Source: Anaerolineae bacterium | GTDB taxonomy: Bacteria > Chloroflexota > Anaerolineae > Epilineales > JAANWY01 | DNA length: 38,447 bases | NCBI GenBank assembly: GCA_046753605.1 | Contig: JBHHTZ010000002.1 | Coordinates: forward strand, 1-38,447 | Direction of reading: 5' to 3' | Shown here: in pieces, positions 914-28,187 of the stretch | Position numbering within the stretch: position 1 is the stretch's first letter | Layout: each line of letters opens with the position of its first letter | Position numbers and translations under genes: made by a program | Notes under the pieces: model-generated | The model's database searches: none | The model's input: the letters and a program-made list of their open reading frames with translations, nothing else | Told to the model about the DNA's origin: nothing

Positions 914-3900
914 TCAGTGCGATGAAATCACATACCTCATCACAAGTCCGTTGTTTCCAACAACCCAACCGTTGCTGAGGGTATCATCCATCCAGATGTC
1001 ATTAAGCTGTGCGGTGTATGTATAAGCGACTTGTTCCCACTGGTGGCCTCGGTACCGGTAGATGGCACCATCCGCCCGCTCGTCGCTGCCTATGGCCGCC
1101 GCCGCCCAGACATCGGTAGGTGTGTGGACATGCAAGCCGGTAATGCCGCCGCCATCATAGGCCCCACTCACCAGGGATTCTGTCCACCGTCCGTTGAAGT
1201 ATCGGACAAGCACGCCGTCGCCGCCGGCTGCCCAGCCTTCTGTGGGCGAATACATGGTGATAGTGCGCAAGGGGCCGGCAGCTCTCAGCAGTGGAGACTC
1301 GGTCCACCCGCCCTTGAAGGCGTAGATATAGCCGTCCGCCGTGATGGCCCAGCCCTGGTCAGGGGCCGGCATGAAAAGATCGGTGTACGGCAAACCAGTC
1401 CAGCGGATGCCGATACCAAAGTCCCATCGTTGTCCGTCCCAGTACAGGATGACGCCATCGTGGTGGCCCAATGCCCATGCCTCATTTGCCGAGAAGGCAT
1501 AGACGGACCAGAAGTCTTCGTCGCGCCCCAACATATCTGAGGGCATCTTCATTCTCAAGAAGTGGTTACCACCGTCGAGTGTTCGAAAGATTGTCTCACC
1601 ATCAGCGACGATGAACCCCACGCGGGCGTCCACCATGAAAATGTCCCGCAGTGTCATGGATCCCAATGTGTCCCATCTCCAGGTGTCACCACCGTCGTTT
1701 GTGCGAGCTATGAAGCCCTCCTCGCCCACGATAAACCCGTTCAGTGCATCGGTAAACGTGATGTCGTGCAGGTCTCGTTGTGGGAACTGTGGAATGTTGA
1801 CCTGGCGACAGGCTGGGTTTGTCGAGGTTGATTGACACCAGACACCTGTCGGGGGCGGTTCAGGCGTTGGAGTAACAGTTGGGGTAACAGTTGGCGTCGA
1901 ACTTGGAGTCGTCGTTGGTCGAATGGTAGGGGTGGTTGTCAGGGTGGGTGTTGGAGAGGGTGTGCCCGTGGGACTCGGTGTCCTGGTCAGTGTTTCTGTC
2001 GGCGGCGCCTCGGTCGGCGTACTTGTGCTGCTTGATGTGACTGTGGGGAGTAAGCATTCAACATGGGACTCACATGCCACGAGCCACTCACCTCTGAAGA
2101 GAGCCTCGACACGGACATGGGATCCCACTGGCGCCTCGATAACGGCGTAGCTCGGTGCTTCTTCTGGCAGGATTCCTATGATCCAGCCGTTCAGGTACAC
2201 TCGCCAATCGTCCACGGGTCGATCCGAGGTTATCGTCTGTTGCCTCATTTCCGGCGTACTTCCCGACCCACACCACCCGCCGCAGTCGAACTGTGGAGAG
2301 ATGCCGGCGGAGGGAGTTGCTGTTGCGGTGGGAAGATGGCCTGCCCGGTTACTGACCACCATCGGCAAGTAGACTCGCCGTGGGACGCGTACAGTAGGAG
2401 TCGCCGTCGGGGTGGCCGGCTGTTGGGTGACGACACCCGTGGGCGTCGAGGAGGGGCTGCTTGTCGCAGTGGGGCTGGATGGGGCAGGTGTCTCGGTACT
2501 TGTAGGTGTCGAGGAGGGGCTGCCTGTCGCGGTTGAGCTAGGCGGGGCAGGTGTTTCCGTACCCGTGGGCGTTGAGGAGGGGCTGCCTGTCGCGGTGGGG
2601 CCAGGCGGGGCCGGCGTACTCGTACTCGTTGGCGTTGGTGAGATTGGTTCGGTCGGGTGGAAGCGAAAGAGCCCCCACCCGTTGGTGCCTATCCAGACGT
2701 CGCCATCCGGTCCCACGGCGACGACCTCGATGTCGCCGCTCACCAGCCGGGAGTTGGCCGGCGACAAGCTCAGCCACTCGGCACCGTCCCGCGCCAGCTT
2801 GATCCCACCGGCGGTTTTCCTGGCCGCCTGGTCCTCTTGACCGTCCTGGTCAGTGTCCACGCCCCCACGCGAGGTTCCAGCCCACACGCCGCCCGTTGCA
2901 TCAACGGCGATGGAGGAGGTCCAGCCATCATGCTCGAACACCTCGTAGGACCAGGCCCCGCCCCGGTACCAGTTAACGACGGCGGGAACGTAGGGCCAAC
3001 TCCTGATGACATCCTTACGTGACATGTCAGTGGTCCCCCAGGTACCGACCCAAACCGTCCCATCGGGCCCAACAGCGATGCTTCGAGCGTCGCCCGTGAT
3101 GCCAGTTTCCACGTATGATTGGATTCCGTCAGCTTTCGTATACACCGTCCACTGCGCCGTTTCGTAGTCATAAGCGCCTACCCCTCCGCCCTGGATGCGG
3201 GCGCCCGTGAAGTACGGCGCGCTGGATACCCACAACTGACGGCGACTGCAATCCGGGACGATGCCGGTGATGAGATTCGAGGGGAGGGGTGGGAATCTGA
3301 ACGGATCCCACCAGATATCGGTGACCGGGTTGAAAGGGTCGTCAGCCGTGGCCAGAATGTCGATGCCGGCGCCGGTGCTATCCTGCAGGTTTCCCAGACC
3401 GATCCATAGCTCCCCGCTACAGCCCACCGCCAGGGCAGTCACACTGTTTGAGCGCAAGCCGGCCGACTCTCCACCGGTGTTCTCGACCGTTCGGATGGCC
3501 CAATGATCACCGTCGAATACACTGAGGCCGCCGTCGGTGTACTCCCGTCTGGAGGAGTCCCACGTGGCTTCGCGAGTGCCGAACCACACGTGGCTACCAT
3601 CGACTTCCAGAGCGACGACATTGTTGCCGGCCAGCCCGGTCCAGGGGGGCTGCCCATCGTCATCAGTGCCTTCCTTCGTGAACTGAGACCACGTGTCATC
3701 CTCTGCATCCAGGGTGCCCTGGGTATTCAGGAGCAGCGCTCCCACACCGTATCGGCGTTCCCGCCGATGCCCCGTGCCCACCCACACCTGGTTCGCCCAC
3801 CGGGTGCCAGCTTCGCCGAAAGCGATGGCCGTCACGTAGTTGCTCGCAATGCCAGAAACAGCCGTGGTCAACCGGCCCTCGAACGCGCCCGTCGTGAGCC

Positions 3901-5455
3901 CGAACCGGCTGATGCCGTACGCCCGGCCGCTGACCCCGCCGGTGCCCATCCACATCACGCTCCCCTGTCCTGACCCCCCTGAAGCGACGCCGGCCACCAT
4001 GACCTGCACGCGGTCTCCCGCCAGACCATTGCCGGTGGTGATGGGCTCGCCGGGCACCGGATTCTTGTCGTTCCAGGTGTCGTCCCGCCGGTTCCCGGGG
4101 GTCCCATTGTGATCCAGGACCGAGATGCCTCGGCCCCAACCGTTGAGACTTCGATACGTACTGAACCACACCGTGTTCCCCCATTCGGGATCGTCTGGTG
4201 GGCCAAAAGCGATGGCATCTACGAAGTTGGTTTCAAGGCCATCAGCCGTAGTGAATCGATCGCGATCGGGACGCAAGATAGTCGCATCCCGCCGAAAGAC
4301 GAGAACACCCCGGCCGCGCATGGCGGCCCAGATATAGCCGAGCGTGTCCATCCGCAACTGCGTCACGACACACCCAAACTGGCTGTTTTCCTCACAGTTC
4401 CACGTCTCCCAGGTGTCATCATCCGTCTCGGGGGTGCCGGCATGGTCGAGCCGGCTGAGACCGCCGTGAGCCTCGACCCACTGGCCCGGGATATTCTCAT
4501 CAGGTTGCTCGAAGAGCCAGTGCTGGCGAGTGGCCACCCAAATCCGGTTGCCGGGCACCGGCAGGATGTCAAGAATATTGTTGGACGCCAGGCCGAGTAT
4601 CACCTCGCCACGCCGCCTGGTGAGGGTATTCTCCAGCGTGTAGGTGTGCAGCCACACGTCGTCACCCGGCTCCAGCGTGCCCTGGGTGTCCAACTGGCTG
4701 AGCCCACCTCCCACGTAGGCCTCCAGCTCGGGGTCCCAGTACTGCGCCGAGCCAACCCACACGTGGCCGGCCTCGTCCAGCGCCACAGCCGTAACCTGGT
4801 TCGAGGGGAGACCGCCGTCCGTGCTTTGCTGCGTATAGGTGTACCAGATGTCATCAGCCTGGTCGGCGGTGCCGTTGTCATCCAGCACACTCAAGCCTCC
4901 GTCGGTGGCAAACCACTTGTGGCCGTGCGAGTCGATAGCGATGTCGTACACCGTGTTGCCGCCCAGACCGCTTTGGGGCTTCAGAAACTGGACGTAAGAG
5001 CTGTCGGTGGTATTCCAGCGGACGACGCCGCCAGCGCGGGTGCCGGCCCATATAACAGTGTGCCCCGAGGTCTCTCCCGAGCTTGTCGAAGCGGTGTCCT
5101 GATCCCCGCTCCGGGCCTGTCGAGGGGCTTGGCGAAGGGGGCCTGACGAAGGGTCGCCCTCGACTTCCAGAGCCAGGATGTCATCCCCGTTAGCGTACGT
5201 GTACCAGTGGCCTGTAGGGAGTGAGGGGGACCCGGTCTGGGCGGTGGAAGGCGTTGGTTGCAGCAAAAGAGGAAGAGACAGGAGCAGCGACAGGCTGAGC
5301 AGGAGGAGCGCGACACAAAGCCCAGGCGGACGAATAAACTTGCCCGCCTGAGTGGGTTCGCCACCAGAACACTTCCCCCGGCCAGGCCGGGGGAAGTGTT
5401 GTCTCATTCCACCTGGAGCGCTATGGCTGGCCAGGGCAGGCGGGAGGCAGCCCAT
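914..5455 (-). CDS. P1: secreted multidomain protein. Signal peptide, about 12-14 Reg_prop-type propeller blades, PT linker, 82-aa 4-Cys domain, second PT linker, BNR/Ycf48-like propeller.
   Basis: 1513-codon ORF. Candidate starts are ATG 5455 (GAGG 9 nt upstream, overlaps the G1 stop by 35 nt) or ATG 5407. Hydrophobic LCVALLLLSLSLLLSLPLLL segment. Repeated blades such as VYDIAIDSHGHKWFATDGGLSVLD, VTAVALDEAGHVWVGS...GGGLSQLD and IEVVAVGPDGDVWIGTNGWGLFRF. SPQFDCGGWC...ACESHVEC domain. Asp-box-like TNDGGDTW and TLDGGNHF in the C-terminal 320 aa. Confidence 0.85.
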   Translation of the reverse strand: MGCLPPALASHSAPGGMRQHFPRPGRGKCSGGEPTQAGKFIRPPGLCVALLLLSLSLLLSLPLLLQPTPSTAQTGSPSLPTGHWYTYANGDDILALEVEGDPSSGPLRQAPRQARSGDQDTASTSSGETSGHTVIWAGTRAGGVVRWNTTDSSYVQFLKPQSGLGGNTVYDIAIDSHGHKWFATDGGLSVLDDNGTADQADDIWYTYTQQSTDGGLPSNQVTAVALDEAGHVWVGSAQYWDPELEAYVGGGLSQLDTQGTLEPGDDVWLHTYTLENTLTRRRGEVILGLASNNILDILPVPGNRIWVATRQHWLFEQPDENIPGQWVEAHGGLSRLDHAGTPETDDDTWETWNCEENSQFGCVVTQLRMDTLGYIWAAMRGRGVLVFRRDATILRPDRDRFTTADGLETNFVDAIAFGPPDDPEWGNTVWFSTYRSLNGWGRGISVLDHNGTPGNRRDDTWNDKNPVPGEPITTGNGLAGDRVQVMVAGVASGGSGQGSVMWMGTGGVSGRAYGISRFGLTTGAFEGRLTTAVSGIASNYVTAIAFGEAGTRWANQVWVGTGHRRERRYGVGALLLNTQGTLDAEDDTWSQFTKEGTDDDGQPPWTGLAGNNVVALEVDGSHVWFGTREATWDSSRREYTDGGLSVFDGDHWAIRTVENTGGESAGLRSNSVTALAVGCSGELWIGLGNLQDSTGAGIDILATADDPFNPVTDIWWDPFRFPPLPSNLITGIVPDCSRRQLWVSSAPYFTGARIQGGGVGAYDYETAQWTVYTKADGIQSYVETGITGDARSIAVGPDGTVWVGTWGTTDMSRKDVIRSWPYVPAVVNWYRGGAWSYEVFEHDGWTSSIAVDATGGVWAGTSRGGVDTDQDGQEDQAARKTAGGIKLARDGAEWLSLSPANSRLVSGDIEVVAVGPDGDVWIGTNGWGLFRFHPTEPISPTPTSTSTPAPPGPTATGSPSSTPTGTETPAPPSSTATGSPSSTPTSTETPAPSSPTATSSPSSTPTGVVTQQPATPTATPTVRVPRRVYLPMVVSNRAGHLPTATATPSAGISPQFDCGGWCGSGSTPEMRQQTITSDRPVDDWRVYLNGWIIGILPEEAPSYAVIEAPVGSHVRVEALFRGEWLVACESHVECLLPTVTSSSTSTPTEAPPTETLTRTPSPTGTPSPTPTLTTTPTIRPTTTPSSTPTVTPTVTPTPEPPPTGVWCQSTSTNPACRQVNIPQFPQRDLHDITFTDALNGFIVGEEGFIARTNDGGDTWRWDTLGSMTLRDIFMVDARVGFIVADGETIFRTLDGGNHFLRMKMPSDMLGRDEDFWSVYAFSANEAWALGHHDGVILYWDGQRWDFGIGIRWTGLPYTDLFMPAPDQGWAITADGYIYAFKGGWTESPLLRAAGPLRTITMYSPTEGWAAGGDGVLVRYFNGRWTESLVSGAYDGGGITGLHVHTPTDVWAAAAIGSDERADGAIYRYRGHQWEQVAYTYTAQLNDIWMDDTLSNGWVVGNNGLVMRYVISSH
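1850..2053 (-). other. second Pro/Thr/Ser-rich linker of P1 (absent from P2 and P3)
   Basis: Translation LLPTVTSSSTSTPTEAPPTETLTRTPSPTGTPSPTPTLTTTPTIRPTTTPSSTPTVTPTVTPTPEPPPTG. Confidence 0.8.
2392..2656 (-). other. first Pro/Thr/Ser-rich linker of P1
   Basis: Translation HPTEPISPTPTSTSTPAPPGPTATGSPSSTPTGTET...TPTATPTV. Contains the 3 x 63-bp tandem repeat. Confidence 0.8.
2444..2632 (-). repeat. in-frame tandem repeat, 3 x 63 bp (21-aa units PAPPGPTATGSPSSTPTGTET / PAPPSSTATGSPSSTPTSTET / PAPSSPTATSSPSSTPTGVVT)
   Basis: Plus-strand units start at 2444, 2507 and 2570. Each opens gt(c/t)gaggaggggctgc(t/c)tgtcgc. Read directly from the sequence. Confidence 0.9.
5058..5160 (-). repeat. REP-like element array inserted in frame in blade 1 of P1 (about 32 extra codons relative to P3)
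   Basis: Contains gagcttgtcgaag (5079-5091) plus degenerate copies gggcctgtcgagggg and cctgacgaaggg. P1 reads EGDPSSGPLRQAPRQARSGDQDTASTSSGETSGHTV where P3 reads only QGDT. Confidence 0.7.
5368..5400 (-). repeat. 33-nt perfect GC-rich palindrome (16-nt arms aacacttcccccggcc / ggccgggggaagtgtt around one central base)
   Basis: Read directly. Lies 21 nt downstream of the G1 stop on the minus strand and inside the first codons of P1 (encodes QHFPRPGRGKC). No U-tract follows. Confidence 0.9.
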
Positions 5456-8400
5456 CAGGACCGACCTCTACCAGGAATCCGCCGTCGAATAGCGGGAAGG
5501 CTTCGAAAGCCTTGGACTCGTCGCCTGGGATGTCTGGATCAGACAGAACGCGACCGACGCGCTCCACCGCCACGGCCCCCAGGGCTACCCCTACGCCTTC
5601 CTGAGTCGGGTCACCGCCCTGCTGATTGGTGTAGGTGGCCGAGATCACCAGCGATCCCAGGAAGCCTGGTGGGATAATACCCCATTCGTCCAGATTGATG
5701 TACTCCACCTGTTTCTCATTCAACTTCTCGCACACGTAGTCGATCAGCCGGTTCTGATCGTAGATGAAGATGACGAAGTCGGTGAAGCCGGGATGGGGGT
5801 TCAGGTTCTGAATGGCCAACTCCGTGGACACGCCCCGGTTGCGCTTGGCCGCCAGCGGAACGGAGAGCACGCCGGTACCGCGGAATCCTCCCCGGCCGGG
5901 CCCCAGTTGCCAGTCATAGGAGCCCATCTCCTGCAGGGCGTTGTATAGGACCGCCTCCTGGCGCGAGGTCTTGGCCGGGTCGGTGTACTTCTCCAGCATG
6001 ACCACCGACAGGACGCGTGGGGCCGAGATCGCCGGATCACCCGGTGAGAACCAGTTCTGGGACTCGACGCGGGCCGAACCGACCCAGTTGCCCGGCAGGC
6101 CGGCAATCATCGGCAGGAAGAAGGTCTGGGAGCCGCGCGGACAGATCCAGTCAACGACGGTCTTGATGACGTCGCCACTATTGTCCAGGAAGTAGACCTT
6201 CACCTTGGCGTTGTACGTCGAGCTCAGGTTCTGCACCTGGATGCTGGTCTCCCAGCCCTGGTGCTCGCGGTAGATCAGCGGCGCGTAGTTCACCTGGGTG
6301 CCCAGGCTGAAGTTTAGAGGGTCATCTTGACCCACGTACACGTCAGCCGGCACGCCGTGGTAGGCGCCGAAGTGGTTGGCGCCCAGCGTATCTATAATCA
6401 CCCCCAGCGGCTGCGAGGCCGACAACCACGCTGAGCCCTGCCAACCAGGCCCTACGACTTCGTTCGGGTCAAATGGATAGGACTCGCCAGGGGCCAGGGA
6501 CAGGATGTCCCACACCACCGGCCGGATGCAGTCCCCCTGGCGCTGGAACCACAGCTCCACGGACGTGCACTCTTCACCCGAGTTCTGGACATTGATGATG
6601 CTGTTCATGCCGAAGTAGTCGGCCCAGACCAGAGGCGCGTAGTAGGCGAACCCGCCGGCCCGTGGGTCACGGAACCCCTCGCGGTCGGTGGAGATGCCTA
6701 CGTAGGCCGCACTGCTGTCCAGGTTGGGATCGACCACGTCCGGACACGTCCGGTTGACTGTGACAGCCAGCGGTTCGCCCGTGTGGGCACCGAAGTCAAG
6801 GACCAACTGCTCCCCCGGGAAATCGCCAATGGGGCCGAAGTAGGTGCCGCTCTCGCGATACGCCCGGTCAAACAGCAGCCACTCGTCGTGATTCTGCCGG
6901 ATCAACGGGAATAGCCGGCCACACGCCATGTCAGCGAAGATACGCTCGTTCCCGCGCTCATCTGTCACCAGGTCGGTCGCGTTCAGGGAGTACATGATGC
7001 CGGACCTGGCCCCTGCCGGCAGCAATCGGTTGGTGAAGGTCCAGGCACTGCCGGGGCGCAGGAGCCCGGTGCACTCGACCTTGAGCGGCCCAAAGGCCTG
7101 CGGCGGGCAGAATCCCGGTTCGCCCCACAGTACCAGCAATGCCTTGGTAAACTCGTTCCCCACATTCTGGACCTGGATCCAGGTCTCGCACTCGTCGGTG
7201 TTGATGGCCGGCAACTGAAGCCGCCAGTCCACGCCCTTGCACGGCGACTGACGCGACACCTCGAACCAGGTGGGGTCATCGTCGTCCCGAGGGTACTCGT
7301 CGTCGAAGCGCGGTCCGTCGAAGTGCGGTCCCTGGACGAAGTTCGTAGGCTCGACGCCGGCTGGGATCTCCGGCCAGCCCGGAGTCTCGGACCACCAGTA
7401 GACGAGACCAGCAGTGCCGGCATGGTTGTTGGCCTGGCGGTTGCTGGTAAAGTATTTGTTGGTGTCCGTGGGGTCGAACTGTGGGAACCGCTGGTCGAAC
7501 AGATCGATCTCGTTATAGTCCACCCAACCGTGGTTGAGGACGATGGTTTTCCCGCAGTGCACGCTGAACCCTGGCCCTGCTTCCATGTCTTTGATCCGCA
7601 CCTGGTAACGCACGCGCAGGGAGAAGGTGACAGGGATGGGCGGGTCATAAGTGACGCCGTTGAAGCGCAGCAGCTCGCCCTTGGGCGGGATGGCCAGCCT
7701 GGTAGCCACGCGGACCTCGTCGTCGCCCGTGTTGTTGCCCAGCGTGATCTCTCCGGGCAGCACGATGGCCGAGGGGTCGGTGATCTCAATCCAGGCGCCA
7801 CCGATCGCCGGCGCCTGTGTGCGGAGCAGGAGATCGTCGCCGAAGGCCAGGTCTGGTGGCTGCACGTCGGCATCAATGATGCGGCCGGTGACCGGATCAC
7901 GTCCGGAGACGTGGATGGCGGCGGTGACGCTGCCGTTGATCAGCTTCGCCGGCACCCACGGGTGATCCGGGTCGTCGTTGATGTAGTTGTACAGCCCATC
8001 GTAGAACACGACCCCCGTGGCCGAGATGGCGCCGGTATTGGAGATGTTAACCGTGTACTCGACGATGTCGCCGGCGGTCGGCTCGCCGTCCCCGTCGTGG
8101 TCATCGAAGATGCTCCAGTCCTTGGTGGTGTCTTCCAGCACCGGCAGGGCCAGGGTATCATGGAGCAGATCGGTGTCGCAGATGAGATTGGGGTCGAGAT
8201 CGTTGCAATAATCATCGCCGGAGGGCTCAATGCCAGGCAAGGGGGTGCTGTACTTGGTGCTGGGCACCGCATCCACCCGCGCCCGATTGGTGCCCAGGGC
8301 GATGATCTGGTTGTTCCCGGCCGGGAAGTCCACCGTGAAGCTGCGGATGATCAGGATGTGGTCGTAGTCGTCCGGCGTGCCCTTCGGGGCCAGGACGGCC

Positions 8401-10808
8401 ACTTCGGGCTCGGTCGTGGCGATGGTGATGGTCTGGGCCTCGTCAGCGCCGGCCACGGTGATGGTGCCCCGCAGCGGCGGCTGGCTCGGGTCCACGACAG
8501 TGAAATTGGTAGTCGCCGCGCGGTAGATAGCTGCATCGGACGGGTCCTGCAGCGTGATGGAGTGGAGCCACGTGTCGCCCTCGTTGGTGATGGTGTAGCA
8601 GTAGGTGAGCTCGTCGCCAGGCAGCGTCAGGATGTCGTCGGCGCTGTAGGCAGCACAGCGTTCAGCCTCCGTCAGGCCATCCGTGGTGACGTCGATGCCT
8701 CTGGCCGGGCTGCTGCGGACGTACACCTTCTTGTCCACCTTGACCGCAGGCGTGACCAGCAGCGTTTGCTCGACGAAAACGTTGTTGCTCAGGTTCGAGT
8801 CCGGCGTCGGGGTGTAGCCGTGGGGCCAGGGATCCGTGCAGGCCAGGCTGCCAGTCTGGGTCGGGCAGATGTTGCCAGGGACGGTGCCCACCTCCACCCG
8901 GTTCTCCACAAAGCCGATGTCCGGCGCCACGTTGGCGTCCACGCGCACGCGGATGGTCAGGGTCCGCGTCGTGGGCAGTGATGGGTTGGCGGGATTAGTC
9001 AGATCCAGGTCATCGCGCCGGCCATCGTTGCCGGCAATCTGGCCCCAGTCCACGATGACCACGCCATCGTCACGGAATCGGATACCGAGGGCGCCCGTGG
9101 GGGAGCCGGTAGTCGTGATCGCTGTCAGCGGATCGCTACCTACCATGTCCAGGCTGGCATAGACCGGCAACGTGTCGGTCAAGATCACTCGGCCGGCATC
9201 CGACGGGCCCAGGTTCTCAATGGTGAGGTAGTAGGTATAGACGAAGCTGTTGGTGACCGGGTCGAAGGTCAGGTAGCCGTCGTCGGGTGTGGGGTTGGGG
9301 ACATCGGTCTTGCTGACGGCCAGGTCAGCCTGGCTGGTGACGCCCGTCAACTCGTGGTCGGTGTTGTTGGCCGCGTAGAAATCGCTGATGTCTGTGGCCT
9401 CGGTGATGACGACCGTGTCGGTGATGGTCACCAGGTTGCCCACAGCATCCGGCTCGCTGTAGATGTCTGGCTCTTTGACCAGGTTACTCCGGGCATAGGC
9501 CACGATGCGGAAGGAGCGCTCCTCATCCGGCATCAGATCGTCCCGCAGCAAGCCGTTAATGCGGAAGTCCGTCAGGGTGACGGTGTTGGCCGGTTGGTCG
9601 TAGGTGCAAACCGGCACCTCATCTGGATCCACCGGCTCGCAGCGGACGAAGACCAGGCCGCTGGGCAGCGTATCGGTGATGTCTGTAGCGCGCGCCTTGG
9701 ACGGCCCCAGGTTCCGGGCCGTGATGTCGTAGGTCACTTCCTCGCCGGCCAGCACCGGGTCGGGGATGTCGGTCTTGGTGATCTGCAGGTTGGCGACCGC
9801 GTTCACGGTTGCTGCCAGGTCGAACGAGTTCGGCGTGGTTGGGTCAGTAGTGTCGCTCGACACCTGGACATTGTTGGTCGCGGTGCGCACGTTGTCCCCA
9901 TCGTCGGGGTCGTCAATGGCGGCATCCGGCCGGGTGCGCGCGACCACCTCTATCTGCTGGGTGGTGGTAGCCGGCACGGTGTTCAGCGGGCAGGTAATGA
10001 GCAGCGGGTTGGCGGCGTTGGCCCAACAGCCGGCCGGCACGCTCTCTACGAAGTCGAACTTGGCCGGCAGGGTGTCAGTGATGATCACGGTCTGGGCATC
10101 CGACGGGCCAGTGTTGGTGACGGTGATTATGTACTTGATCAACTCACCGGCGGTCACCTGATCCGCGGTGGGTGTGAGGATGTCCTGGAAGGTATTGGTG
10201 TCGAAGCCGGTGGCCACGTCGCCCTCAGACGTCTTGGACACAGAGAGGTCGGCCTCGGCTTGTACTGTGACGAAGGCGTGGTTCTCGTTGTCAGGGGGAT
10301 TATCCTCGGTGCCAAACTGCCAGGCTCGCACGTCGTGGTCCAGGAGCGTGCCATCCGGGACGTCCGGGAGCACGTACACGGTGACGTTGACCGTCTCGGT
10401 CCTACCTGTGGGCATGTTGCCCAGGGAACAGATGGACGGGTCGCTGGGATCGCCCTCGGTGCCGACCTCACAAGGGCCGACAGAGCTTGAGATGCTCTGG
10501 ATCACCACGCCGGCCGGCGCCCGGTACTCGAACACCACGGCCTCCGCGTCCGGCTGGCTGCTGGCGTTGTTTGTTACCTCCACGGCGAACGAGTGGTTGG
10601 TACCGGCCTTGGTCGTAGTTGGTGGCGACGTCGAAAAGGTCACCTCCAGGTCGCCGAAGGCGCGGGCGGTCAAGACGTTTAGAGCCAGCGCCAGCACGAG
10701 GACGGCGACGATGGCCGGCGCGGCGAGCAGGAGAATGCGCCGGCCTGGCCAGGCATGATATGGAAGATGATTGCCGGGATGTTTATGGTTAGGGGCGCGA
10801 CTATTCAT
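5421..10808 (-). CDS. G1: giant cell-surface protein. N-terminal signal/anchor, multiple DUF11-type repeats, conserved 608-aa Cys-rich C-terminal head.
   Basis: 1795-codon ORF. ATG 10808 has GAGGAGGAG 8 nt upstream. N-terminal RRILLLAAPAIVAVLVLALALNVLTARA. DUF11-like repeat openings EADLSVSKT, VANLQITKTD and QADLAVSKTD, with VTNTGPSDA / ARNLGPSKA / IENLGPSDA cores. Acidic DDHDGDGEPTAGD loop. Stop TAG at 5421-5423. Confidence 0.9.
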   Translation of the reverse strand: MNSRAPNHKHPGNHLPYHAWPGRRILLLAAPAIVAVLVLALALNVLTARAFGDLEVTFSTSPPTTTKAGTNHSFAVEVTNNASSQPDAEAVVFEYRAPAGVVIQSISSSVGPCEVGTEGDPSDPSICSLGNMPTGRTETVNVTVYVLPDVPDGTLLDHDVRAWQFGTEDNPPDNENHAFVTVQAEADLSVSKTSEGDVATGFDTNTFQDILTPTADQVTAGELIKYIITVTNTGPSDAQTVIITDTLPAKFDFVESVPAGCWANAANPLLITCPLNTVPATTTQQIEVVARTRPDAAIDDPDDGDNVRTATNNVQVSSDTTDPTTPNSFDLAATVNAVANLQITKTDIPDPVLAGEEVTYDITARNLGPSKARATDITDTLPSGLVFVRCEPVDPDEVPVCTYDQPANTVTLTDFRINGLLRDDLMPDEERSFRIVAYARSNLVKEPDIYSEPDAVGNLVTITDTVVITEATDISDFYAANNTDHELTGVTSQADLAVSKTDVPNPTPDDGYLTFDPVTNSFVYTYYLTIENLGPSDAGRVILTDTLPVYASLDMVGSDPLTAITTTGSPTGALGIRFRDDGVVIVDWGQIAGNDGRRDDLDLTNPANPSLPTTRTLTIRVRVDANVAPDIGFVENRVEVGTVPGNICPTQTGSLACTDPWPHGYTPTPDSNLSNNVFVEQTLLVTPAVKVDKKVYVRSSPARGIDVTTDGLTEAERCAAYSADDILTLPGDELTYCYTITNEGDTWLHSITLQDPSDAAIYRAATTNFTVVDPSQPPLRGTITVAGADEAQTITIATTEPEVAVLAPKGTPDDYDHILIIRSFTVDFPAGNNQIIALGTNRARVDAVPSTKYSTPLPGIEPSGDDYCNDLDPNLICDTDLLHDTLALPVLEDTTKDWSIFDDHDGDGEPTAGDIVEYTVNISNTGAISATGVVFYDGLYNYINDDPDHPWVPAKLINGSVTAAIHVSGRDPVTGRIIDADVQPPDLAFGDDLLLRTQAPAIGGAWIEITDPSAIVLPGEITLGNNTGDDEVRVATRLAIPPKGELLRFNGVTYDPPIPVTFSLRVRYQVRIKDMEAGPGFSVHCGKTIVLNHGWVDYNEIDLFDQRFPQFDPTDTNKYFTSNRQANNHAGTAGLVYWWSETPGWPEIPAGVEPTNFVQGPHFDGPRFDDEYPRDDDDPTWFEVSRQSPCKGVDWRLQLPAINTDECETWIQVQNVGNEFTKALLVLWGEPGFCPPQAFGPLKVECTGLLRPGSAWTFTNRLLPAGARSGIMYSLNATDLVTDERGNERIFADMACGRLFPLIRQNHDEWLLFDRAYRESGTYFGPIGDFPGEQLVLDFGAHTGEPLAVTVNRTCPDVVDPNLDSSAAYVGISTDREGFRDPRAGGFAYYAPLVWADYFGMNSIINVQNSGEECTSVELWFQRQGDCIRPVVWDILSLAPGESYPFDPNEVVGPGWQGSAWLSASQPLGVIIDTLGANHFGAYHGVPADVYVGQDDPLNFSLGTQVNYAPLIYREHQGWETSIQVQNLSSTYNAKVKVYFLDNSGDVIKTVVDWICPRGSQTFFLPMIAGLPGNWVGSARVESQNWFSPGDPAISAPRVLSVVMLEKYTDPAKTSRQEAVLYNALQEMGSYDWQLGPGRGGFRGTGVLSVPLAAKRNRGVSTELAIQNLNPHPGFTDFVIFIYDQNRLIDYVCEKLNEKQVEYINLDEWGIIPPGFLGSLVISATYTNQQGGDPTQEGVGVALGAVAVERVGRVLSDPDIPGDESKAFEAFPLFDGGFLVEVGPDGLPPACPGQP
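5424..7247 (-). other. G1 C-terminal head: four tandem modules sharing xPL(I/V)...(T/S)xIxVQN...F...LxPxxS...GSA; family not recognised
   Basis: Module openings are LQLPAINTDECETWIQVQNVG, YYAPLVWADYFGMNSIINVQNSG, NYAPLIYREHQGWETSIQVQNLS and LSVPLAAKRNRGVSTELAIQNLN. About 12 conserved Cys. Confidence 0.75.
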
Positions 10809-10954
10809 GAGTGATTCTCCTCCTCAAACAACGTTCTAAGGGCCGGCGCCAGGCCGGCTGAAGCGCTGATTTCGCACTTTTGGCCTGAATTTGACAACCC
10901 AAGAGCAGGCTGAGTCGTACATCGGACTTCGGGCATCGGATGGGTGCATCTGCC

Positions 10955-12814
10955 TCATGGACACGGCTGGCCCCACTGCGCACTCACAAGCATGATATCC
11001 TGCACGGTGATAATACCATCATCTGGATGCAGGTCGAAGTAGAGCTCGTAGTTCGGGGTAAGCGGGTTGCCATCCGGGTCCGGGTTGGCGGCCGTGAGGT
11101 GCCAGCGGCTGGCAATGGCCACCACGTCATCGATGTCTACCGCTTCATCTCCATCAAAATTGTAGCAACCTGCCGCGATGGCGGCGGCGACAGGGTCTTC
11201 AAAGGCTCCAATGTCACAGGTTGTCCCCTTCGGTCGGGCGACGCCGCGCTGGTCGGTCGCCGGCGCGCCTGCGCAGGTGCCGGCATCAACAGCCGGGCTC
11301 CCGACGAGGAGCGCATGGGTTTCGGTGTTACCAGGTGCATTAAGTTGCAGCGGACCGAGGAGCGGATCGGTATTGACCAGATCGGTTGGTTCCGTGAAGC
11401 CACAACTGCTAGCGCTTTCCAGATTGTAGCCCTGGGACGTGACGACGCTCTTGGTTGTTGTCCCGGTGCCTCCGCCAACAATCGTGTTCTTGAACGTAGC
11501 GCTGCCCAGGTTGTGGATCATGTTTATGCCGACATTGTTGAAGATGGTGCTGTTGACCACCTGCAGAGTGGCACCGGCATTGTTGCGGATGGCTGCACCG
11601 TAGCCGGCGGGGGCCTGATTGCCGGTGATGGTTACGTTGGTGAGCGACATAGGGCCGCGATTGTAGATGCCACCCCCGCCCATGCCTTGCAGGGCGAGTG
11701 TGTTGCCGCTGATGGTGCTTTTAGTGAGCGTGGCGGTGGAGGCGTCGCTGGAATGGAACAGCCCGCCGCCTCCCTTGCGGGCTGTGTTATCGCGAATAGT
11801 GCTCTGGTCCATGGTCAACGCACCCGTGTTGTAGATGCCTCCACCAAAGGAACCAGGTGCGTCGAGTACGTTGTCGCGGATGGTACTGGTGGTGAGCGTG
11901 AGCGTGCCACCGCCGCTGAAGATGCCGGCACCCTGCCGGTTTGCGGTATTTCCGCTGACCGTGCTGTCGGTCAGCGTCAGTGAGCCAAGGGTGGCGATGC
12001 CACCCCCTCGTCGCTCCACAGTGTTGTCACTGACAGTGACGTTGTTCAACGTCGCCGTGCCCGAATCCAGATTGAAGATGCCGCCGCCAGCATCCCGCGC
12101 CGAGTTATCGCTGATGGTGCCACCGCTCATTGTCAGGGAGCCCTGATTGGCAATGCCACCGCCTGCGGACTCGTCGGCTGCGTTGTCTTTGACGTCGACG
12201 TCGGTCAGAGTCAGCGTACCCATGTTTCGGATGCCGGCACCTATTCCCGTGACACCGCCACCCACGATGACGACAATGACCGATGCAGTATCCCCGTTCT
12301 GGATCGTCACATCCTGGATTGTTACGGTGGCACCCGGAAGAATGTCGAACACCCGGTCGAAGGTGAGACCGTCAACGATTGTGGTAGCTGCGTTTGCGCC
12401 AATTATGGTCATGTCGTCGGTGATGTCCAGATCGCCGGTATCGGCCTCATCCTCACCGGTGCCGACACGGGTCAAAGTGTAGACTCCAGCCGGCAAGGTA
12501 ATGGCATCGGGACCGACCGTGGCGTTGGCCTGCTGTATGGCCGCACGCAGGGTGCATATGCCAGTCAAGAAGGGGGCGCTGCCGGTATCGCAGAGGCCGT
12601 CCGCAAGGCCCCCATCGGGAAGGTCGGCGACACTGTTGACAAGGAAGGCCGCAGCGTGGGCCACTGGCACTGATCCCGAACCCACGTTCAGCGCTATCCC
12701 GGCCATCAGCACAGCGAGGAAAAACAGATGTAATCCTCGGACGCAGGTGGAACTCAACCTGGCCTTATTGTTGGTAGGCTTGCGGTTCATTCTCGGGTGC
12801 ATAAGGTGATTCAA
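10955..12814 (-). CDS. H1: secreted CSLREA-motif / right-handed parallel beta-helix / choice-of-anchor Q protein with dockerin-like tail
   Basis: 619-codon ORF. The first in-frame start, TTG 12814, is 3 nt after the N1 stop; ATG alternatives are 12802 and 12790. Signal peptide ends VPVAHA. CTLRAAIQQAN motif. About 12 turns of GGGIxNxGxLT(L/M)xxSTIxxNxA. SQGYNLE..SCGF..DPLLGPLQLN..THALLVGSPAVDAG..DQRGVARP..CDIGAFE. Confidence 0.9.
   Translation of the reverse strand: MNHLMHPRMNRKPTNNKARLSSTCVRGLHLFFLAVLMAGIALNVGSGSVPVAHAAAFLVNSVADLPDGGLADGLCDTGSAPFLTGICTLRAAIQQANATVGPDAITLPAGVYTLTRVGTGEDEADTGDLDITDDMTIIGANAATTIVDGLTFDRVFDILPGATVTIQDVTIQNGDTASVIVVIVGGGVTGIGAGIRNMGTLTLTDVDVKDNAADESAGGGIANQGSLTMSGGTISDNSARDAGGGIFNLDSGTATLNNVTVSDNTVERRGGGIATLGSLTLTDSTVSGNTANRQGAGIFSGGGTLTLTTSTIRDNVLDAPGSFGGGIYNTGALTMDQSTIRDNTARKGGGGLFHSSDASTATLTKSTISGNTLALQGMGGGGIYNRGPMSLTNVTITGNQAPAGYGAAIRNNAGATLQVVNSTIFNNVGINMIHNLGSATFKNTIVGGGTGTTTKSVVTSQGYNLESASSCGFTEPTDLVNTDPLLGPLQLNAPGNTETHALLVGSPAVDAGTCAGAPATDQRGVARPKGTTCDIGAFEDPVAAAIAAGCYNFDGDEAVDIDDVVAIASRWHLTAANPDPDGNPLTPNYELYFDLHPDDGIITVQDIMLVSAQWGQPCP
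10958..11167 (-). other. dockerin-like C-terminal module of H1 (two Ca-loop/helix segments)
   Basis: The pair YNFDGDEAVDIDDVVAIASRW and FDLHPDDGIITVQDIMLVSAQW matches the duplicated DxDxDGxIxxxD-hydrophobic pattern of type I dockerins. Confidence 0.55.
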
Positions 12815-12817
12815 AGC

Positions 12818-14779: not shown

Positions 14780-14975
14780 CGGATTTCAATAGCGGTGGCT
14801 GTTGTTAGGCTGCAACGCGGAGTCAGCGCGGAGCGCCTCGTGCTATCAGCAAGATATTCCCTGCCTGGTGAATGGTTTTAACTTGAGTGCTGTAACGCAA
14901 CGCGGGCGCGAAGGATACGGGCACTGACCGCGAATTTGCCCATTTTGTGAAAAACTCGTGAATTCCCGAATCGTC

Positions 14976-15005
14976 TTGACCCCCGCCATGCCTTTCATGT
15001 ATACT
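14976..15005 (+). promoter_or_regulatory. sigma70-like promoter of S1: TTGACC (14976-14981), 18-nt spacer, TATACT (15000-15005)
   Basis: Read directly. Lies about 40 nt upstream of the S1 SD/ATG, in the 267-bp divergent spacer between N1 and S1. Confidence 0.6.
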
Positions 15006-15046
15006 GCAGGCAGTTCATTTCAATTGAGAATGTGAGGAGGTCACAA

Positions 15047-15379: not shown

Positions 15380-18300
15380 CTAGCACCCAACATCTGACTC
15401 GCAGGCCAGGAGCCACTGGCCCTGGAACAGGGCCTCGATGCGAACGTGGTATCCCACGGGGGCCTCGACGACGGCGTAAGTTGGGTATTCTTCTGACAGT
15501 AACCCGATCGCCAGGCCGTTCACGTACATACGCCAGTCGTCCACGGGTTGGCTCGATGTCACGGTCTGCTGTCTCATGTCCGCCGAGCCTCCCAATTCAC
15601 ACCACCCTCCACAATCGAACTGAGGGGAGGTAGCAGGCGGCGTTGGCGCTGCAGCGAGCTGGCTCACCCAGTTGCTGGCCACCAGCGGCAAATAGAGTTG
15701 CCGGGACGAGGTTCCCCCAGGGGTCGCTGTCGGTGTCGGCGTAGGTGTCGGTGTAGGGGGCAGCGGCGTAGCAGTGCTGGTGGGCGTGCTGGTGGGTGTT
15801 GATGTCGGAGCAGGCGAGGTCGGCGTGCTCGTCGGGGTTGGCTCGGTCGGTTCCTGGCCCGCGTGGAAGCGCATCAAACCCCATCCGTTGGTGCCGATCC
15901 AGACATCACCATCCGGCGCTGCAGCGATGACTTCGACGTCGCCGCTCACCAGCGGCGAATTGGCCGGCGACCAGCTCGCCCACCCGGCCCCGGCACGCGT
16001 GAGCTTGATCCCGCCGGCAGTCTTTTTGATCTCCGTATCCTCTGCCTGGCCATCCCGATCGCCGTCCATGCCACCGCGCGAAGTGCCGGCCCAGACGGTG
16101 CCGGCGGCATCCACGGCGATAGACGAAACCCAGCCATCGTGCTGGAAGGAGGCGGAATCCCAGGCGCCACCCCGGTACCAGTTGATCGTCGCCGGAACGT
16201 AGGGCCAGTTGGAGATATCCGTACTCGTGGTGTTGGTCATGCCCCAGGTGCCGGCCCAGATCGCCCCCTCGGGACCAACGGCGATGCTTCGGGCGTCGCC
16301 GGTGACGTTCCGACTGGCGTATGATTGCAGGCCATCGGCCGTCGTGTAGGCTGTCCAGGCCTGGGCAGCCTCGTCATACCGGCCCACGCCGCCCCCCATG
16401 TTGCCGAAACCGGCAAAGTGAGGCGCACCGGACACCCATACCTGGCCCTGGCCGCAATCTGGCGCAATGTCAGTTATGAGGTCCGAAGGAATCGCGGGGT
16501 ATCTGAATGGGTTCCACCAGGTATCGTTCTCCAGGTTGTGGGGATCGCCCCCCGTGTCCAGCACATCGATGCCGGCCCCCTGGTTCTCCTGCAAACTCCC
16601 CAGCCCAATCCACACCTCCCCATGGCACCCCACCGCCAGCGCCGATACCCCGTTCGACCGCAATCCCGTTGACTCACCCCCCGTACTCTCCACAGTGCGA
16701 ACGGTCCACCCCTCACCGTCGTACACGCTCAACCCCCCGTCGGTGTACCCATGGGCCTCCGAATCCCACATCGCCTCCCGCGTGCCGAACCACACGTTGT
16801 CCCCAGCCACGGCCACCGCCACCACGTTGTCCCCAGCCAGCCCCGTCCACGGCGGCTGCCCATCGTCGTCGGCGCCGGCCTTGGTGAACTGCGTCCACGT
16901 ATCATCGTCCCCCCCCAGCGTGCCATGGGTGTCCAGTAGCAGGGCGCCCGCCCCATACCGCCGCTCCCACCGATTGCCCGTGCCCACCCACACCTGGTTC
17001 TCCCAGCGCGTGCCGGCCTCCCCGAAGGCCACATCGGTGATGTAGTTGCTGGGGATGCCCGTGGCAGCCGTGCTCAGCGGGTCGTCGAAGGCCCGCCTGG
17101 TCAGATCGAAGGGGCTGATGCCGTACGCCCGACCACTGATCCCGCCGGTCCCCATCCAGATGACGTCGTTGCCGGCCAGCATGGCCTGCACCCGGTTGCC
17201 CGCCAGACCATCCCCCGTGGTGAGGGGCTGGCCGGCGGTCGGGTTTTTGACGTTCCACGTGTCGTCGCTGCGGTTGCCGGGCGTGCCGCCGTGATCCAGC
17301 ACCGACACGCCGTACCCCTGGCCGTTGAAGCTGTGGTAGCTGCTGAACCAGACGGCGTTGGCCCATTCGGGGTCATTCGGCGGGCCAAAGGCGATGGCAT
17401 CCACGAAGTTGGACGCCAGGCCATCGGCGGTGGTGAAGCGATCGCGATCCGGGCGCAGGCTGGCGGCGTCGTAGCGGAAAGTGAGCACGCCCCGGCCGCG
17501 CATGGCGGCCCAGATATAGCCCAGGCTGTCCATGCGCAGTTGGGTGACCACGCACCCAAACTGGCTGTCATCCTCGCAGTTCCAGCTCTTCCAGGTGTCA
17601 TCGTCCGGCTCCGGCGTGCCGGCGTGGTCCAGCCGGCTGAGACCACCATGGACCTGGACCCACCGGCCGGGGATGTTCTCGGTGGGTTCTTCGTACAGCC
17701 AGTGCTGCCGGCTGGCGACCCACACGCGACCCTGTCCTGAGCCTGTCGAAGGGTTGCCCGGCACCGGCAGGATGTCGGTGATGTTGTCGGATGCCAGCCC
17801 CAGAATCTGTTGACCCTGCTGGACGGTGAGGGTGTTGTCCAGGGTGAAGGTGTGGAGCCACACATCGTCACTCGGGTCCAGGGTGCCGTGTGGGTCCAGC
17901 TCTGTCAGGCCACCACCGGTGTAGGCTTCTGCATCGGGGTCCCAGTACTGGGAAGAGCCGATCCACAGGCGGCCGGCCTCATCGACGGCCACAGCGGTGA
18001 CCTGGTTGGAGGGGAGTTGGCCGCCGGTGTTCTGCCGGGTGTAGGTGTGCCAGGTGTCGTCGGCTTTGCCGGGAGTGCTGTTGTCATCCAGCACGCTGAG
18101 GCCGCCGTCGGTGGCCAGCCACTTGAGGCCATGGTCATCGATGGCGATGTCGTAGACGATGTTGCCGGCCAGCTCGTCCTGGGGCTTGAGGAACTGGGTG
18201 TAGGAGCCGGCGGTCGTGTTCCAGCGGATGAGGCCGCCGGCGCGGGTGCCGGCCCACAGGACGCCGTGTCCCGAGGTCTCTCCTGAGCTTGTCGAAGCGA

Positions 18301-18637
18301 CGTCCCGAGCTTGTCGAAGGGGGCCTGACGAAGGGTCGCCTTCGCGGGCCAGAGCCAAGATGTCGTCGCCGTTGGCGTAGGTGTACCACTGGCCTGTAGG
18401 GAGTGAGGGGGACCCGGTCTGGGCGGTGGAAGGCGTTGGTTGCAGCAAAAGAGGAAGAGACAGGAGCAGCGACAGGCTGAGCAGGAGGAGCGCGACACAA
18501 AGCCCAGGCGGACGAATAAACTTGCCCGCCTGAGTGGGTTCGCCACCAGAACACTTCCCCCGGCCAGGCCGGGGGAAGTGTTGTCTCATTCCACCTGGAG
18601 CGCTATGGCTGGCCAGGGCAGGCGGGAGGCAGCCCAT
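15380..18637 (-). CDS. P2: Reg_prop-type propeller protein with PT linker and terminal 4-Cys domain; mosaic of P3 (body) and P1 (N-terminus)
   Basis: 1085-codon ORF. 15380-18130 is identical to P3. 18390-18637 is identical to the P1 5' end. Same blade motifs as P1. Ends ...ACESDVGC with stop TAG at 15380-15382, directly abutting the S1 stop. Confidence 0.85.
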   Translation of the reverse strand: MGCLPPALASHSAPGGMRQHFPRPGRGKCSGGEPTQAGKFIRPPGLCVALLLLSLSLLLSLPLLLQPTPSTAQTGSPSLPTGQWYTYANGDDILALAREGDPSSGPLRQARDVASTSSGETSGHGVLWAGTRAGGLIRWNTTAGSYTQFLKPQDELAGNIVYDIAIDDHGLKWLATDGGLSVLDDNSTPGKADDTWHTYTRQNTGGQLPSNQVTAVAVDEAGRLWIGSSQYWDPDAEAYTGGGLTELDPHGTLDPSDDVWLHTFTLDNTLTVQQGQQILGLASDNITDILPVPGNPSTGSGQGRVWVASRQHWLYEEPTENIPGRWVQVHGGLSRLDHAGTPEPDDDTWKSWNCEDDSQFGCVVTQLRMDSLGYIWAAMRGRGVLTFRYDAASLRPDRDRFTTADGLASNFVDAIAFGPPNDPEWANAVWFSSYHSFNGQGYGVSVLDHGGTPGNRSDDTWNVKNPTAGQPLTTGDGLAGNRVQAMLAGNDVIWMGTGGISGRAYGISPFDLTRRAFDDPLSTAATGIPSNYITDVAFGEAGTRWENQVWVGTGNRWERRYGAGALLLDTHGTLGGDDDTWTQFTKAGADDDGQPPWTGLAGDNVVAVAVAGDNVWFGTREAMWDSEAHGYTDGGLSVYDGEGWTVRTVESTGGESTGLRSNGVSALAVGCHGEVWIGLGSLQENQGAGIDVLDTGGDPHNLENDTWWNPFRYPAIPSDLITDIAPDCGQGQVWVSGAPHFAGFGNMGGGVGRYDEAAQAWTAYTTADGLQSYASRNVTGDARSIAVGPEGAIWAGTWGMTNTTSTDISNWPYVPATINWYRGGAWDSASFQHDGWVSSIAVDAAGTVWAGTSRGGMDGDRDGQAEDTEIKKTAGGIKLTRAGAGWASWSPANSPLVSGDVEVIAAAPDGDVWIGTNGWGLMRFHAGQEPTEPTPTSTPTSPAPTSTPTSTPTSTATPLPPTPTPTPTPTATPGGTSSRQLYLPLVASNWVSQLAAAPTPPATSPQFDCGGWCELGGSADMRQQTVTSSQPVDDWRMYVNGLAIGLLSEEYPTYAVVEAPVGYHVRIEALFQGQWLLACESDVGC
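15383..15628 (-). other. 82-aa terminal 4-Cys domain of P2 (CxxxC ... Cx5C-end); homologous segments at 28565-28810 (P3) and 2054-2299 (P1)
   Basis: SPQFDCGGWCELGGSADMRQQTVTSSQPVDDWRMYVNGLAIGLLSEEYPTYAVVEAPVGYHVRIEALFQGQWLLACESDVGC. About 70 percent identical to the P1 version by eye. Confidence 0.6.
15721..15856 (-). other. PT linker of P2
   Basis: EPTEPTPTSTPTSPAPTSTPTSTPTSTATPLPPTPTPTPTPTATPGG. Confidence 0.8.
17729..17752 (-). repeat. 24-nt REP-like insertion (core gagcctgtcgaag) adding PSTGSGQG to a P2 blade loop
   Basis: P2 and P3 read PVPGNPSTGSGQGRVWVA where P1 reads PVPGNRIWVA. The inserted plus-strand sequence is accctgtcctgagcctgtcgaagg. Confidence 0.7.
18262..18343 (-). repeat. 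REP-like element array inserted in frame in blade 1 of P2 (24 extra codons relative to P3)
   Basis: Two exact copies of gagcttgtcgaag (18285-18297 and 18307-18319) plus cctgacgaaggg. P2 reads EGDPSSGPLRQARDVASTSSGETSGHGV where P3 reads QGDT. Confidence 0.7.
18550..18582 (-). repeat. second copy of the 33-nt perfect palindrome, at the G2-to-P2 junction
   Basis: Identical to 5368-5400. Confidence 0.9.
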
Positions 18638-23990: not shown

Positions 23991-24136
23991 GAGTGATTCT
24001 CCTCCTCAAACAACGTTCTAAGGGCCGGCGCCAGGCCGGCTGAAGCGCTGATTTCGCACTTTTGGCCTGAATTTGACAACCCAAGAGCAGGCTGAGTCGT
24101 ACATCGGACTTCGGGCATCGGATGGGTGCATCTGCC

Positions 24137-25996: not shown

Positions 25997-25999
25997 AGC

Positions 26000-28157: not shown

Positions 28158-28187
28158 TTGACCCCCGCCATGCCTTTCATGTATACT
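28158..28187 (+). promoter_or_regulatory. promoter of S2 (TTGACC-N18-TATACT), copy of 14976-15005
   Basis: Lies inside the perfect repeat. Confidence 0.6.

Follow-up and report, generated by a model that had tools for sequence, protein, structure and literature searches.

Introduction

The proteins that most closely resemble the domain discussed here appear to be those of the ASRAH superfamily, defined by De Souza, Iyer & Aravind in 2009 as eight-stranded sandwiches in which a tryptophan starts strand 1 and a nearly invariant asparagine ends strand 2, where it closes the tight turn between strands 2 and 3 (PMC2739507). Three families were distinguished in that work: the ASRT-like proteins, solo and intracellular; tetrads of Roseiflexus, Chloroflexus and Herpetosiphon that are secreted and carry an amidase; and the secreted dyads of actinobacteria. 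The secreted proteins carry either two or four of the domains, the tetrads being those of Chloroflexi; TM1070 forms a cleft-bearing homotetramer, and the binding of sugars was predicted for the superfamily (PMC2739507). Below, we describe a stretch of DNA from an Anaerolineae bacterium, comprising positions 1 to 38,447 of contig JBHHTZ010000002.1 (assembly GCA_046753605.1) and referred to here as the window, in which three long genes, G1, G2 and G3, encode proteins that share a conserved region of about 600 residues, the head. In G1 (5421..10808, minus strand; 1795 aa) the head comprises residues 1188–1795 and is encoded by positions 5424..7247 of the minus strand; its 608 residues, numbered from 1 in what follows, very probably form a single-chain tetrad of ASRT/TM1070-like (ASRAH) beta-sandwich modules.

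The G1 protein begins with a hydrophobic signal segment, followed by immunoglobulin-like stalk repeats of the DUF11/TIGR01451 type and, at the C-terminus, the head. A scan of G1 against Pfam and NCBIfam places the matches to DUF11, DUF7507 and TIGR01451 in the N-terminal ~750 residues and gives zero matches in the last 608. Searches of Pfam, NCBIfam and the PDB sequences with the head (phmmer in the case of the PDB), with its own single modules at E-values up to 10 or with a full-length profile likewise return nothing. No Pfam or NCBIfam model covers the head family, and in the literature searched we found no paper describing this unit of ~590 aa. An earlier interpretation made from the DNA letters alone, referred to here as the sequence-only reading, had recognized repeated modules in the head, could name no family for them and knew of no described function. 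The statement on function holds as regards experimentally shown functions. The statement on family does not, the modules being probable members of the ASRT/TM1070 (ASRAH) group by structure and, at a borderline level, by sequence.

A four-fold repeat of beta-sandwich modules

The repeat is not apparent in a single sequence: self-BLAST of the head finds none, and profiles are therefore needed to see it. Module profiles derived from 40 close homologs give only modest repeat signals (E 2e-6 for modules 2 and 3; modules 1–4 are abbreviated M1–M4) and do not match ASRT. Improved profiles were obtained by cutting 240 homologous units, distant homologs included, into modules and making these non-redundant at 55% identity; the same 240 units underlie the conservation figures given below. 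With these profiles, hhalign aligns M2 with M3 at a probability of 97.5% (E 5.5e-12), M1 with M2 at 96% (E 2e-9), M3 with M4 at 96% (E 4e-9) and M2 with M4 at 93% (E 4e-7), the two remaining pairs being M1–M3 (72%, E 3.3e-5) and M1–M4 (42%, E 2.6e-4). For this purpose M1 consisted of residues 5–92 joined to residues 156–186, with an insert removed, and it is in this form that it aligns with M2 over 98 columns; the insert therefore lies inside module 1 and is not a spacer that follows it. As judged by comparison of profiles, it is confirmed that the head consists of four homologous modules of ~100–125 aa. The sequence-only reading had proposed four tandem modules, and they are borne out with E-values between 5.5e-12 and 4e-7 in four of the six comparisons; the peptide strings that it quoted are all present in the minus-strand translation of 5424–7247.

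An AlphaFold2 model of the head, built from the alignment of 40 sequences, contains four eight-stranded beta-sandwiches (strands assigned by DSSP) with a mean predicted local distance difference test score (pLDDT) of 86.2 and a predicted template modelling score (pTM) of 0.89, in line with the repeated beta-sandwich unit that had been deduced from the strand pattern. A pTM of 0.89 over 608 residues implies that the four sandwiches are predicted as one rigid body. Module 1 (6690..7235, minus strand; residues 5–186) has predicted strands at 9–12, 21–28, 34–41, 56–59, 68–71, 82–89, 160–169 and 177–183; its strand 2, ETWIQVQN, ends in N28, and it holds the conserved cysteines 20, 47, 59, 109 and 168. 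Module 2 (6348..6659, minus strand; residues 197–300) has NSIINVQN as strand 2, ending in N222, together with C227 and C240; modelled alone by AlphaFold2, it again has eight strands, with a pLDDT of 92.9. In module 3 (5934..6302, minus strand; residues 316–438) strand 2 is WETSIQVQN, with N340 at its end, and in module 4 (5496..5879, minus strand; residues 457–584) it is STELAIQN, with N481 at its end. Both have eight strands by DSSP and one conserved cysteine each, C369 and C506, respectively. The C-terminal tail (5424..5495, minus strand; residues 585–608) ends in CPGQP and is modelled with low confidence; its C604 is invariant in the alignment of close homologs and is 100% conserved wherever the position is present among the 240 units.

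The insertion in module 1 (6783..6971, minus strand; residues ~93–155) lies between strands 6 and 7 and is predicted to form two helices (104–116 and 120–131) and some short strands. It has no significant similarity to the modules, and some homologs are without it, matching positions 8–88 of the hidden Markov model (HMM) and then only 140–590. An insert of about 100 aa following module 1 had been described previously; an insert does exist, at ~63 aa and within the module. The count of about 12 conserved cysteines must likewise be revised, to 11 cysteines in the head, of which 10 (20, 47, 59, 109, 168, 227, 240, 369, 506 and 604) are 89–100% conserved. In all, 43 positions of the head are conserved at 93% or more; these are mostly Gly, Pro, Asn, Cys and Trp, and they recur at equivalent structural positions.

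Relationship to ASRT and TM1070

When the model of all 608 residues was compared with the PDB by Foldseek, the only match at the level of a domain was to TM1070 of Thermotoga maritima (1nc7; probability 1.0, template modelling (TM) score TMt 0.72). The other matches to the whole head (arrestin, complement MG domains, capsid jelly rolls) were set aside as the generic noise of multi-sandwich proteins, with TM scores below 0.2, and those to the three-jelly-roll capsids of picornaviruses and nepoviruses were rejected for want of global similarity. The sequence-only reading had suggested that single modules be modelled and compared. Module 2 alone retrieves TM1070 at ranks 1–3 (E 1e-6, TMq 0.75–0.76, rmsd 2.9–3.5 Å), and chains of TM1070 or ASRT make up 20 of the 24 top matches. 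Eight strands in every module by DSSP, together with TM1070 at the top of the Foldseek ranking, are what is expected of the ASRAH fold.

The hallmark asparagine of the superfamily is also present. Strand 2 is ended by N28, N222, N340 and N481 in modules 1 to 4, this being the N of the ‘IxVQN’ motif, and the last three of these residues are 97–99% conserved. When 72 diverse modules, drawn from all four types, are merged into one alignment, this position alone reaches 90% conservation, and it aligns with the corresponding asparagine of ASRT. As in the secreted members of the superfamily, the modules occur in sets, with four per unit and also in half-units (M1+M2, HMM positions 1–300), and signal segments are present. 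The sequence signals point the same way, at a borderline level. A merged module profile searched against 177,635 PDB sequences has ASRT at ranks 1 and 2, with E-values of 0.059 and 0.065 and in the right register; hhalign of a profile of 307 module sequences with the ASRT profile gives a probability of 50% and E 1.7e-4, again in the correct register; and a one-to-one hmmsearch of the module profile against TM1070 scores 15.7 bits. We consider it highly probable, from the predicted fold and the hallmark asparagine, that the modules are ASRAH-like; their homology in sequence to ASRT is probable rather than proven. The sequence-only reading had regarded a match to a characterized family as the finding that would overturn its view of the head as unassigned. 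Such a match exists for the fold and the superfamily, although the function of the superfamily is itself only predicted.

Distribution and architectures of the head family

What is conserved is the whole unit of ~590 aa and not the single module. More than 480 proteins match the head at 46–86% identity over ~100% of its length, and an exhaustive search gives 992 clusters at 50% identity, of which 328 lie below E 1e-30. A survey of taxonomic distribution, also suggested by the sequence-only reading, finds the head at 208 loci in the GTDB representative genomes. All of the 75 loci inspected come from metagenome-assembled genomes (MAGs), nearly all of them of Chloroflexota; the labels of most are Anaerolineae, Anaerolineales, Caldilineae, Ardenticatenales, Ca. 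Epilinea brevis or simply Chloroflexi. Copies of the head number at least 6–9 per MAG of the Anaerolineae class. Across MAGs labelled Anaerolineae, Caldilineae and Ardenticatenales the unit is 46–60% identical, whereas the regions to which it is joined vary. The viral contigs searched hold no relatives of the head. Two records are labelled otherwise, as MAGs of Gammaproteobacteria (L047, CAVZRD010000004.1) and Acidobacteria (P0109), and a few more only as ‘bacterium’; mis-binning, mis-labelling or rare transfer are possible explanations for the first two.

The architectures were counted over 218 proteins that contain a full unit. In 69 of them the head sits at the C-terminus behind a long N-terminal region, 60 consist essentially of the head only, 49 continue beyond the head with a tail of at least 100 aa, 23 are extended on both sides and 17 hold two or three units in one protein; half-units (M1+M2) also occur, between full units. 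An N-terminal hydrophobic segment is present in 134 of the 175 complete homologs, and a strongly hydrophobic tail at the C-terminus is seen in just one. The fusion partners include DUF11/DUF7507 stalks, SdrD-B and CarboxypepD_reg spacers, PD40, LTD and P-domains, and S8 subtilases with a prodomain of the fervidolysin type. In one protein (P0142) the head comes after an S8 subtilase with its own prodomain and a spacer, and the largest proteins bearing the head reach ~4800 aa.

The tails of at least 100 aa that follow the head in 49 of the 218 proteins are P-domain-like in those inspected, and the head then occupies the position that is normal for a catalytic domain. It might be supposed from this that the head is an unrecognized enzyme, for example a beta-sandwich hydrolase or lyase, with a P-domain or PPC domain behind it as the usual appendage. 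No enzyme is found among the matches by sequence or structure, and some paralogs already have an S8 catalytic domain of their own. Among the positions conserved at 93% or more, 43 in number, no His occurs and no catalytic constellation is evident, and their composition makes the enzymatic explanation a weak one. We regard it as highly improbable.

The architectures also bear on the suggestion, made by the sequence-only reading, that the head is the functional tip of the protein at its membrane-distal end. In its fullest form this would make G1 an adhesin with an uncleaved N-terminal anchor, a DUF11 stalk and, at the far end, a tetrad whose targets are other cells, foreign surfaces or polysaccharides of the environment. 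The hydrophobic stretch at the N-terminus of G1 is long enough (~22 residues; KD15 hydrophobicity 3.08) to be such an anchor, but an ARA|F site resembling that of signal peptidase follows it. DUF11 and TIGR04226 isopeptide domains, which are typical of adhesin stalks, are present in the G proteins, a long N-terminal region precedes a C-terminal head in the 69 homologs noted above, and the nearest fold neighbours other than ASRT are carbohydrate-binding modules (CBMs). Adhesin tips usually diverge quickly, whereas the head is the slowest-evolving part: the G1 and G3 proteins are 78% identical in the head (over 610 aa) and at most 31% identical in the remainder, from which the head is seen to be the conserved part of the G proteins, as had been claimed for it, and it is 46–60% identical across orders. 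Furthermore, the unit is found not only at the C-terminus but also at the N-terminus, alone, in two or three tandem copies and behind a protease that has to lose its N-terminal prodomain. The membrane-distal position was an assumption of the sequence-only reading, and a shared module for targeting or binding accounts for the mixed architectures no less well. A distal adhesin tip is, in our opinion, rather unlikely.

A proposed secreted binding and targeting module

The explanation that we favour is that the head is a single-chain tetrad of the ASRAH type that acts as a lectin-like targeting module; its probability can be put at about 55%. According to this proposal, the head would be secreted and stabilized by disulfides, with its four ASRAH-type sandwiches packed into one rigid body of ~590 aa that reproduces, within a single chain, the homotetramer of TM1070. 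A conserved ligand, which is most likely a carbohydrate and may be a glycan of the producer's own envelope, wall, sheath or matrix, would be bound in clefts that lie on the sandwiches or between them. In binding it, the head would target or retain its fusion partners, namely the isopeptide-type DUF11 stalks in G1–G3 and S8 proteases, propellers or P-domains in the paralogs. The proposal builds on the four-fold repeat, the fold, the compactness, the hallmark asparagine, the export signals and the modular reuse of the unit, as these emerge from structure prediction and comparison of sequences. A carbohydrate is preferred as the ligand because sugar binding has been predicted for the ASRAH superfamily and because CBMs are the next structural neighbours; taken by itself, the statement that the head is a glycan-binding targeting module is tentative and falls somewhat short of an even chance. 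Targeting or retention is considered likelier than a fast-evolving distal tip because the head is the slowest-evolving part, because its partners vary and because it can follow a protease that needs N-terminal processing.

Several observations weigh against this explanation. Pfam ASRT (PF07100) matches no module at E-values up to 10, and every sequence link to ASRT lies under curated thresholds, the best being 22.9 bits, to DUF5719, with a cut-off of 26.2. The tryptophan of strand 1 in ASRAH proteins is not conserved in the head family: module 1 of G1 does have D7–W8, but the family consensus is QVHLPILNF, and strand 1 of modules 2 to 4 has Y/Y, Y and L/I, respectively, followed by a conserved Pro. 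Binding and looping of DNA have been reported for ASRT (PMC8660804), and the sugar-binding role of the ASRAH superfamily is itself a prediction only (PMC2739507). The stand-alone heads, 60 of the 218 proteins, have nothing attached to them that could be targeted. Finally, clustering of the neighbouring genes over the 75 loci gave no conserved operon, whether with genes of glycan synthesis or with any other partner.

A broader variant is that the ASRAH tetrad serves as a general system for display or anchoring at the cell surface of Anaerolineae-class Chloroflexota, docking passengers on a lineage-specific wall or sheath polymer or, by way of short YLPLV-type strands, on partner proteins. Its function would then be analogous to that of SLH domains or cohesin scaffolds, with dozens of secreted passengers per genome; we think this unlikely.

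The three head genes and their neighbours

All long genes of the window are on the minus strand, according to the list of open reading frames (ORFs). The second copy of the head (18606..20429, minus strand) belongs to G2 (gene 18603..23990), a protein identical to G1 that lies within a perfect direct repeat. The third (31959..33740, minus strand) is residues 1525–2118 of G3 (gene 31956..38312) and has diverged, with ~85% nucleotide identity. The repeat is 12,923 bp long and 100% identical (5208–18130 = 18390–31312; period 13,182 bp), and it duplicates G1/G2, a gene for a beta-helix protein of 619 aa, a gene for an NHL protein of 653 aa and the larger part of a propeller gene. Either a segmental duplication took place very recently or the repeat is an artefact of assembly. 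The ORF of G3, as listed, begins 135 nt from the end of the window and has no N-terminal signal segment, and its true start may therefore lie upstream or outside the window. Pfam and NCBIfam find a CHRD domain and a TIGR04226 isopeptide-forming domain in G3 that are not found in G1. Long ORFs of 552–822 aa run antisense to the G genes (7323–8981, 20505–22163 and 32709–35177, all on the plus strand), as they do at many related loci. They are almost certainly artefacts of coding sequence with 63% GC and not genes. The largest ‘cluster’ of neighbouring genes in the survey of related loci, present at 16 of the 75, was rejected, consisting as it did of ORFs antisense to the head genes themselves.

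Directly downstream of G1, and in the same direction, is a gene for a beta-propeller of the Reg_prop/BNR type (914..5455, minus strand; Pfam Reg_prop). The pairing recurs after G2 (15380..18637, minus strand), and a propeller paralogue (28562..31774, minus strand) lies 182 nt downstream of G3. The longest ORFs of the first two propeller genes (914–5455 and 15380–18637) overlap the stop of the upstream G1 or G2 by 35 nt; with a start at the internal Met17 (MRQHF...), the propeller and G genes would instead be 13 nt apart. Whichever start is used, the G and propeller genes look co-transcribed, and it is possible that the propeller protein is a functional partner of the head. The propeller proteins carry, between linkers rich in Pro and Thr, an isolated strand of the form R-x-(V/L)YLP(L/M)V-x-SN that resembles strand 1 of the modules (YxPLV). 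Its sites, all on the minus strand, are at ~2357–2374 (residue 1028 of the 1513-aa protein), ~15680–15697 (residue 981 of the 1085-aa protein) and ~28862–28879 (residue 966 of the 1070-aa protein). Strands of this type are also found at two of the related loci, L034 (3993–5513) and L066 (9687–12173); at the former a similar motif, ARLFLPLLFREGRIIR, forms the extreme C-terminus after a PT linker, in the manner of a sorting or docking signal. Our searches of the literature on the YLPLV-type strand, on DUF5719 and on DUF11 in Chloroflexi yielded nothing of relevance.

The 619-aa beta-helix protein, which is Chlamydia-PMP-like (10955..12814), has a C-terminal segment of ~75 aa (10955–11180, minus strand; DGDEAVDIDDVVAIASRW ... 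HPDDGIITVQDIMLVSAQW) that to the eye resembles a two-repeat dockerin or EF-hand. The Pfam model Dockerin_1 does not reach E 0.1 with this protein. A member of the head family elsewhere, P0143, has a weak match to Dockerin_1 (E 0.011).

It is from this neighbourhood that another role for the head can be argued, as a module for protein–protein assembly. It might be a cohesin-like receptor or a lattice unit that binds propellers, dockerin-like tails or YLPLV-type strands, or it might associate with itself into a sheath or S-layer. In the window, all three G genes have a propeller gene close behind them, two of these pairs being the copies in the perfect repeat, and a homologous propeller gene is close to the head gene at five of the 75 related loci, so that the pairing is confined to a minority of loci. 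The YLP(L/M)V strand of the propellers does resemble strand 1 of the modules, but the likeness spans only six residues. The two weak dockerin signals would fit a cohesin-like receptor, yet no cohesin is found among the structural neighbours given by Foldseek. Stand-alone heads, half-units and proteins with three units would suit a lattice, and ASRT itself acts through contacts with protein and DNA. On balance, we regard assembly as distinctly unlikely to be the role of the head, and prefer the lectin-like targeting module described above.

What is new in the head family

The fold, and the existence of secreted ASRAH tetrads in Chloroflexi, have been known since 2009. New in the head family are the lack of an amidase, the different class of Chloroflexota, the helical insert and the ten conserved cysteines, and a massive expansion with many fusion partners. 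The family is large, unannotated and distinct, but it is not a new fold.

The Chloroflexota of the Anaerolineae type form filaments and are abundant in activated sludge, sediments and sponges; to our knowledge, almost nothing is known of how they build and decorate their envelopes. The head unit is among the most expanded extracellular building blocks of these organisms. Its link to ASRAH gives a concrete hypothesis, namely that the head binds glycans in clefts located on the four sandwiches or between them, and the unit provides the basis for a new domain model with which thousands of ‘hypothetical’ proteins could be annotated. It also offers a single-chain counterpart in which to study why ASRT and TM1070 form tetramers.

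Comparison with known systems

ASRT/TM1070 (Pfam PF07100, formerly DUF1362; PDB 2ii7 and 1nc7) is the founding family of the ASRAH superfamily. The head modules have in common with it the eight-stranded beta-sandwich fold and the asparagine that closes strand 2, and the fourfold organization is found on both sides, as a homotetramer in TM1070 and as four domains of one chain in the head. The differences are considerable. ASRT/TM1070 proteins are solo, intracellular, ~125 aa in length and have the signature SHEshChhN, whereas the head modules are extracellular, rich in cysteine, fused in one chain and undetected by PF07100, and have neither the His/Cys signature in strand 2 nor the tryptophan in strand 1. 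Thus, in strand-2 signature, in solo occurrence and in score against the family threshold, they fall outside PF07100 proper.

The amidase-associated tetrads, the second family of the 2009 study, come from the same phylum and are likewise secreted, with four ASRAH domains in tandem. Those of Roseiflexus, Chloroflexus and Herpetosiphon are always fused to an N-acetylmuramoyl-L-alanine amidase, and binding to glycans of the cell wall has been predicted for them. No amidase is found in the head proteins, as judged from 120 listed homologs (precomputed Pfam matches), eight further large homologs, G1 and G3. The hosts also differ in class, being MAGs of the Anaerolineae type for the head and Chloroflexia for the amidase-associated tetrads, and the helical insert in module 1 and the 10 conserved cysteines set the head apart from the latter as they were described.

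DUF5719 (PF18986) is the only Pfam family touched by any module. The best match, of a module of the M2 type, has E 5.5e-5 and 22.9 bits over profile positions 61–143; two of the 72 diverse modules match at all, below the gathering threshold of 26.2 bits, and scores of 31–32 bits came from artificial concatenates of modules. For ASRT, DUF5719 is the second-best Pfam match (E 0.069, profile positions 175–224). Since a module of the M2 type and ASRT match different parts of it, DUF5719 looks like a bridging dyad of ASRAH-like domains, and the matches suggest that this is what it is. It could be joined to ASRT in a clan. We presume that DUF5719 may be the actinobacterial lipoprotein ‘dyad’ family of the 2009 paper. 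It appears as a dyad with flanking regions of its own, and the head as a tetrad.

After TM1070 and ASRT, the next neighbours of module 2 are CBMs of Ruminococcus flavefaciens (5aos and 5fu2–4; probability 0.97–1.0, TM ~0.5). They have the same type of role as that proposed for the head, being non-catalytic targeting modules on secreted proteins. They differ from it in their lower TM scores and the lack of a sequence signal, and they are single domains, whereas the head is an obligate block of four.

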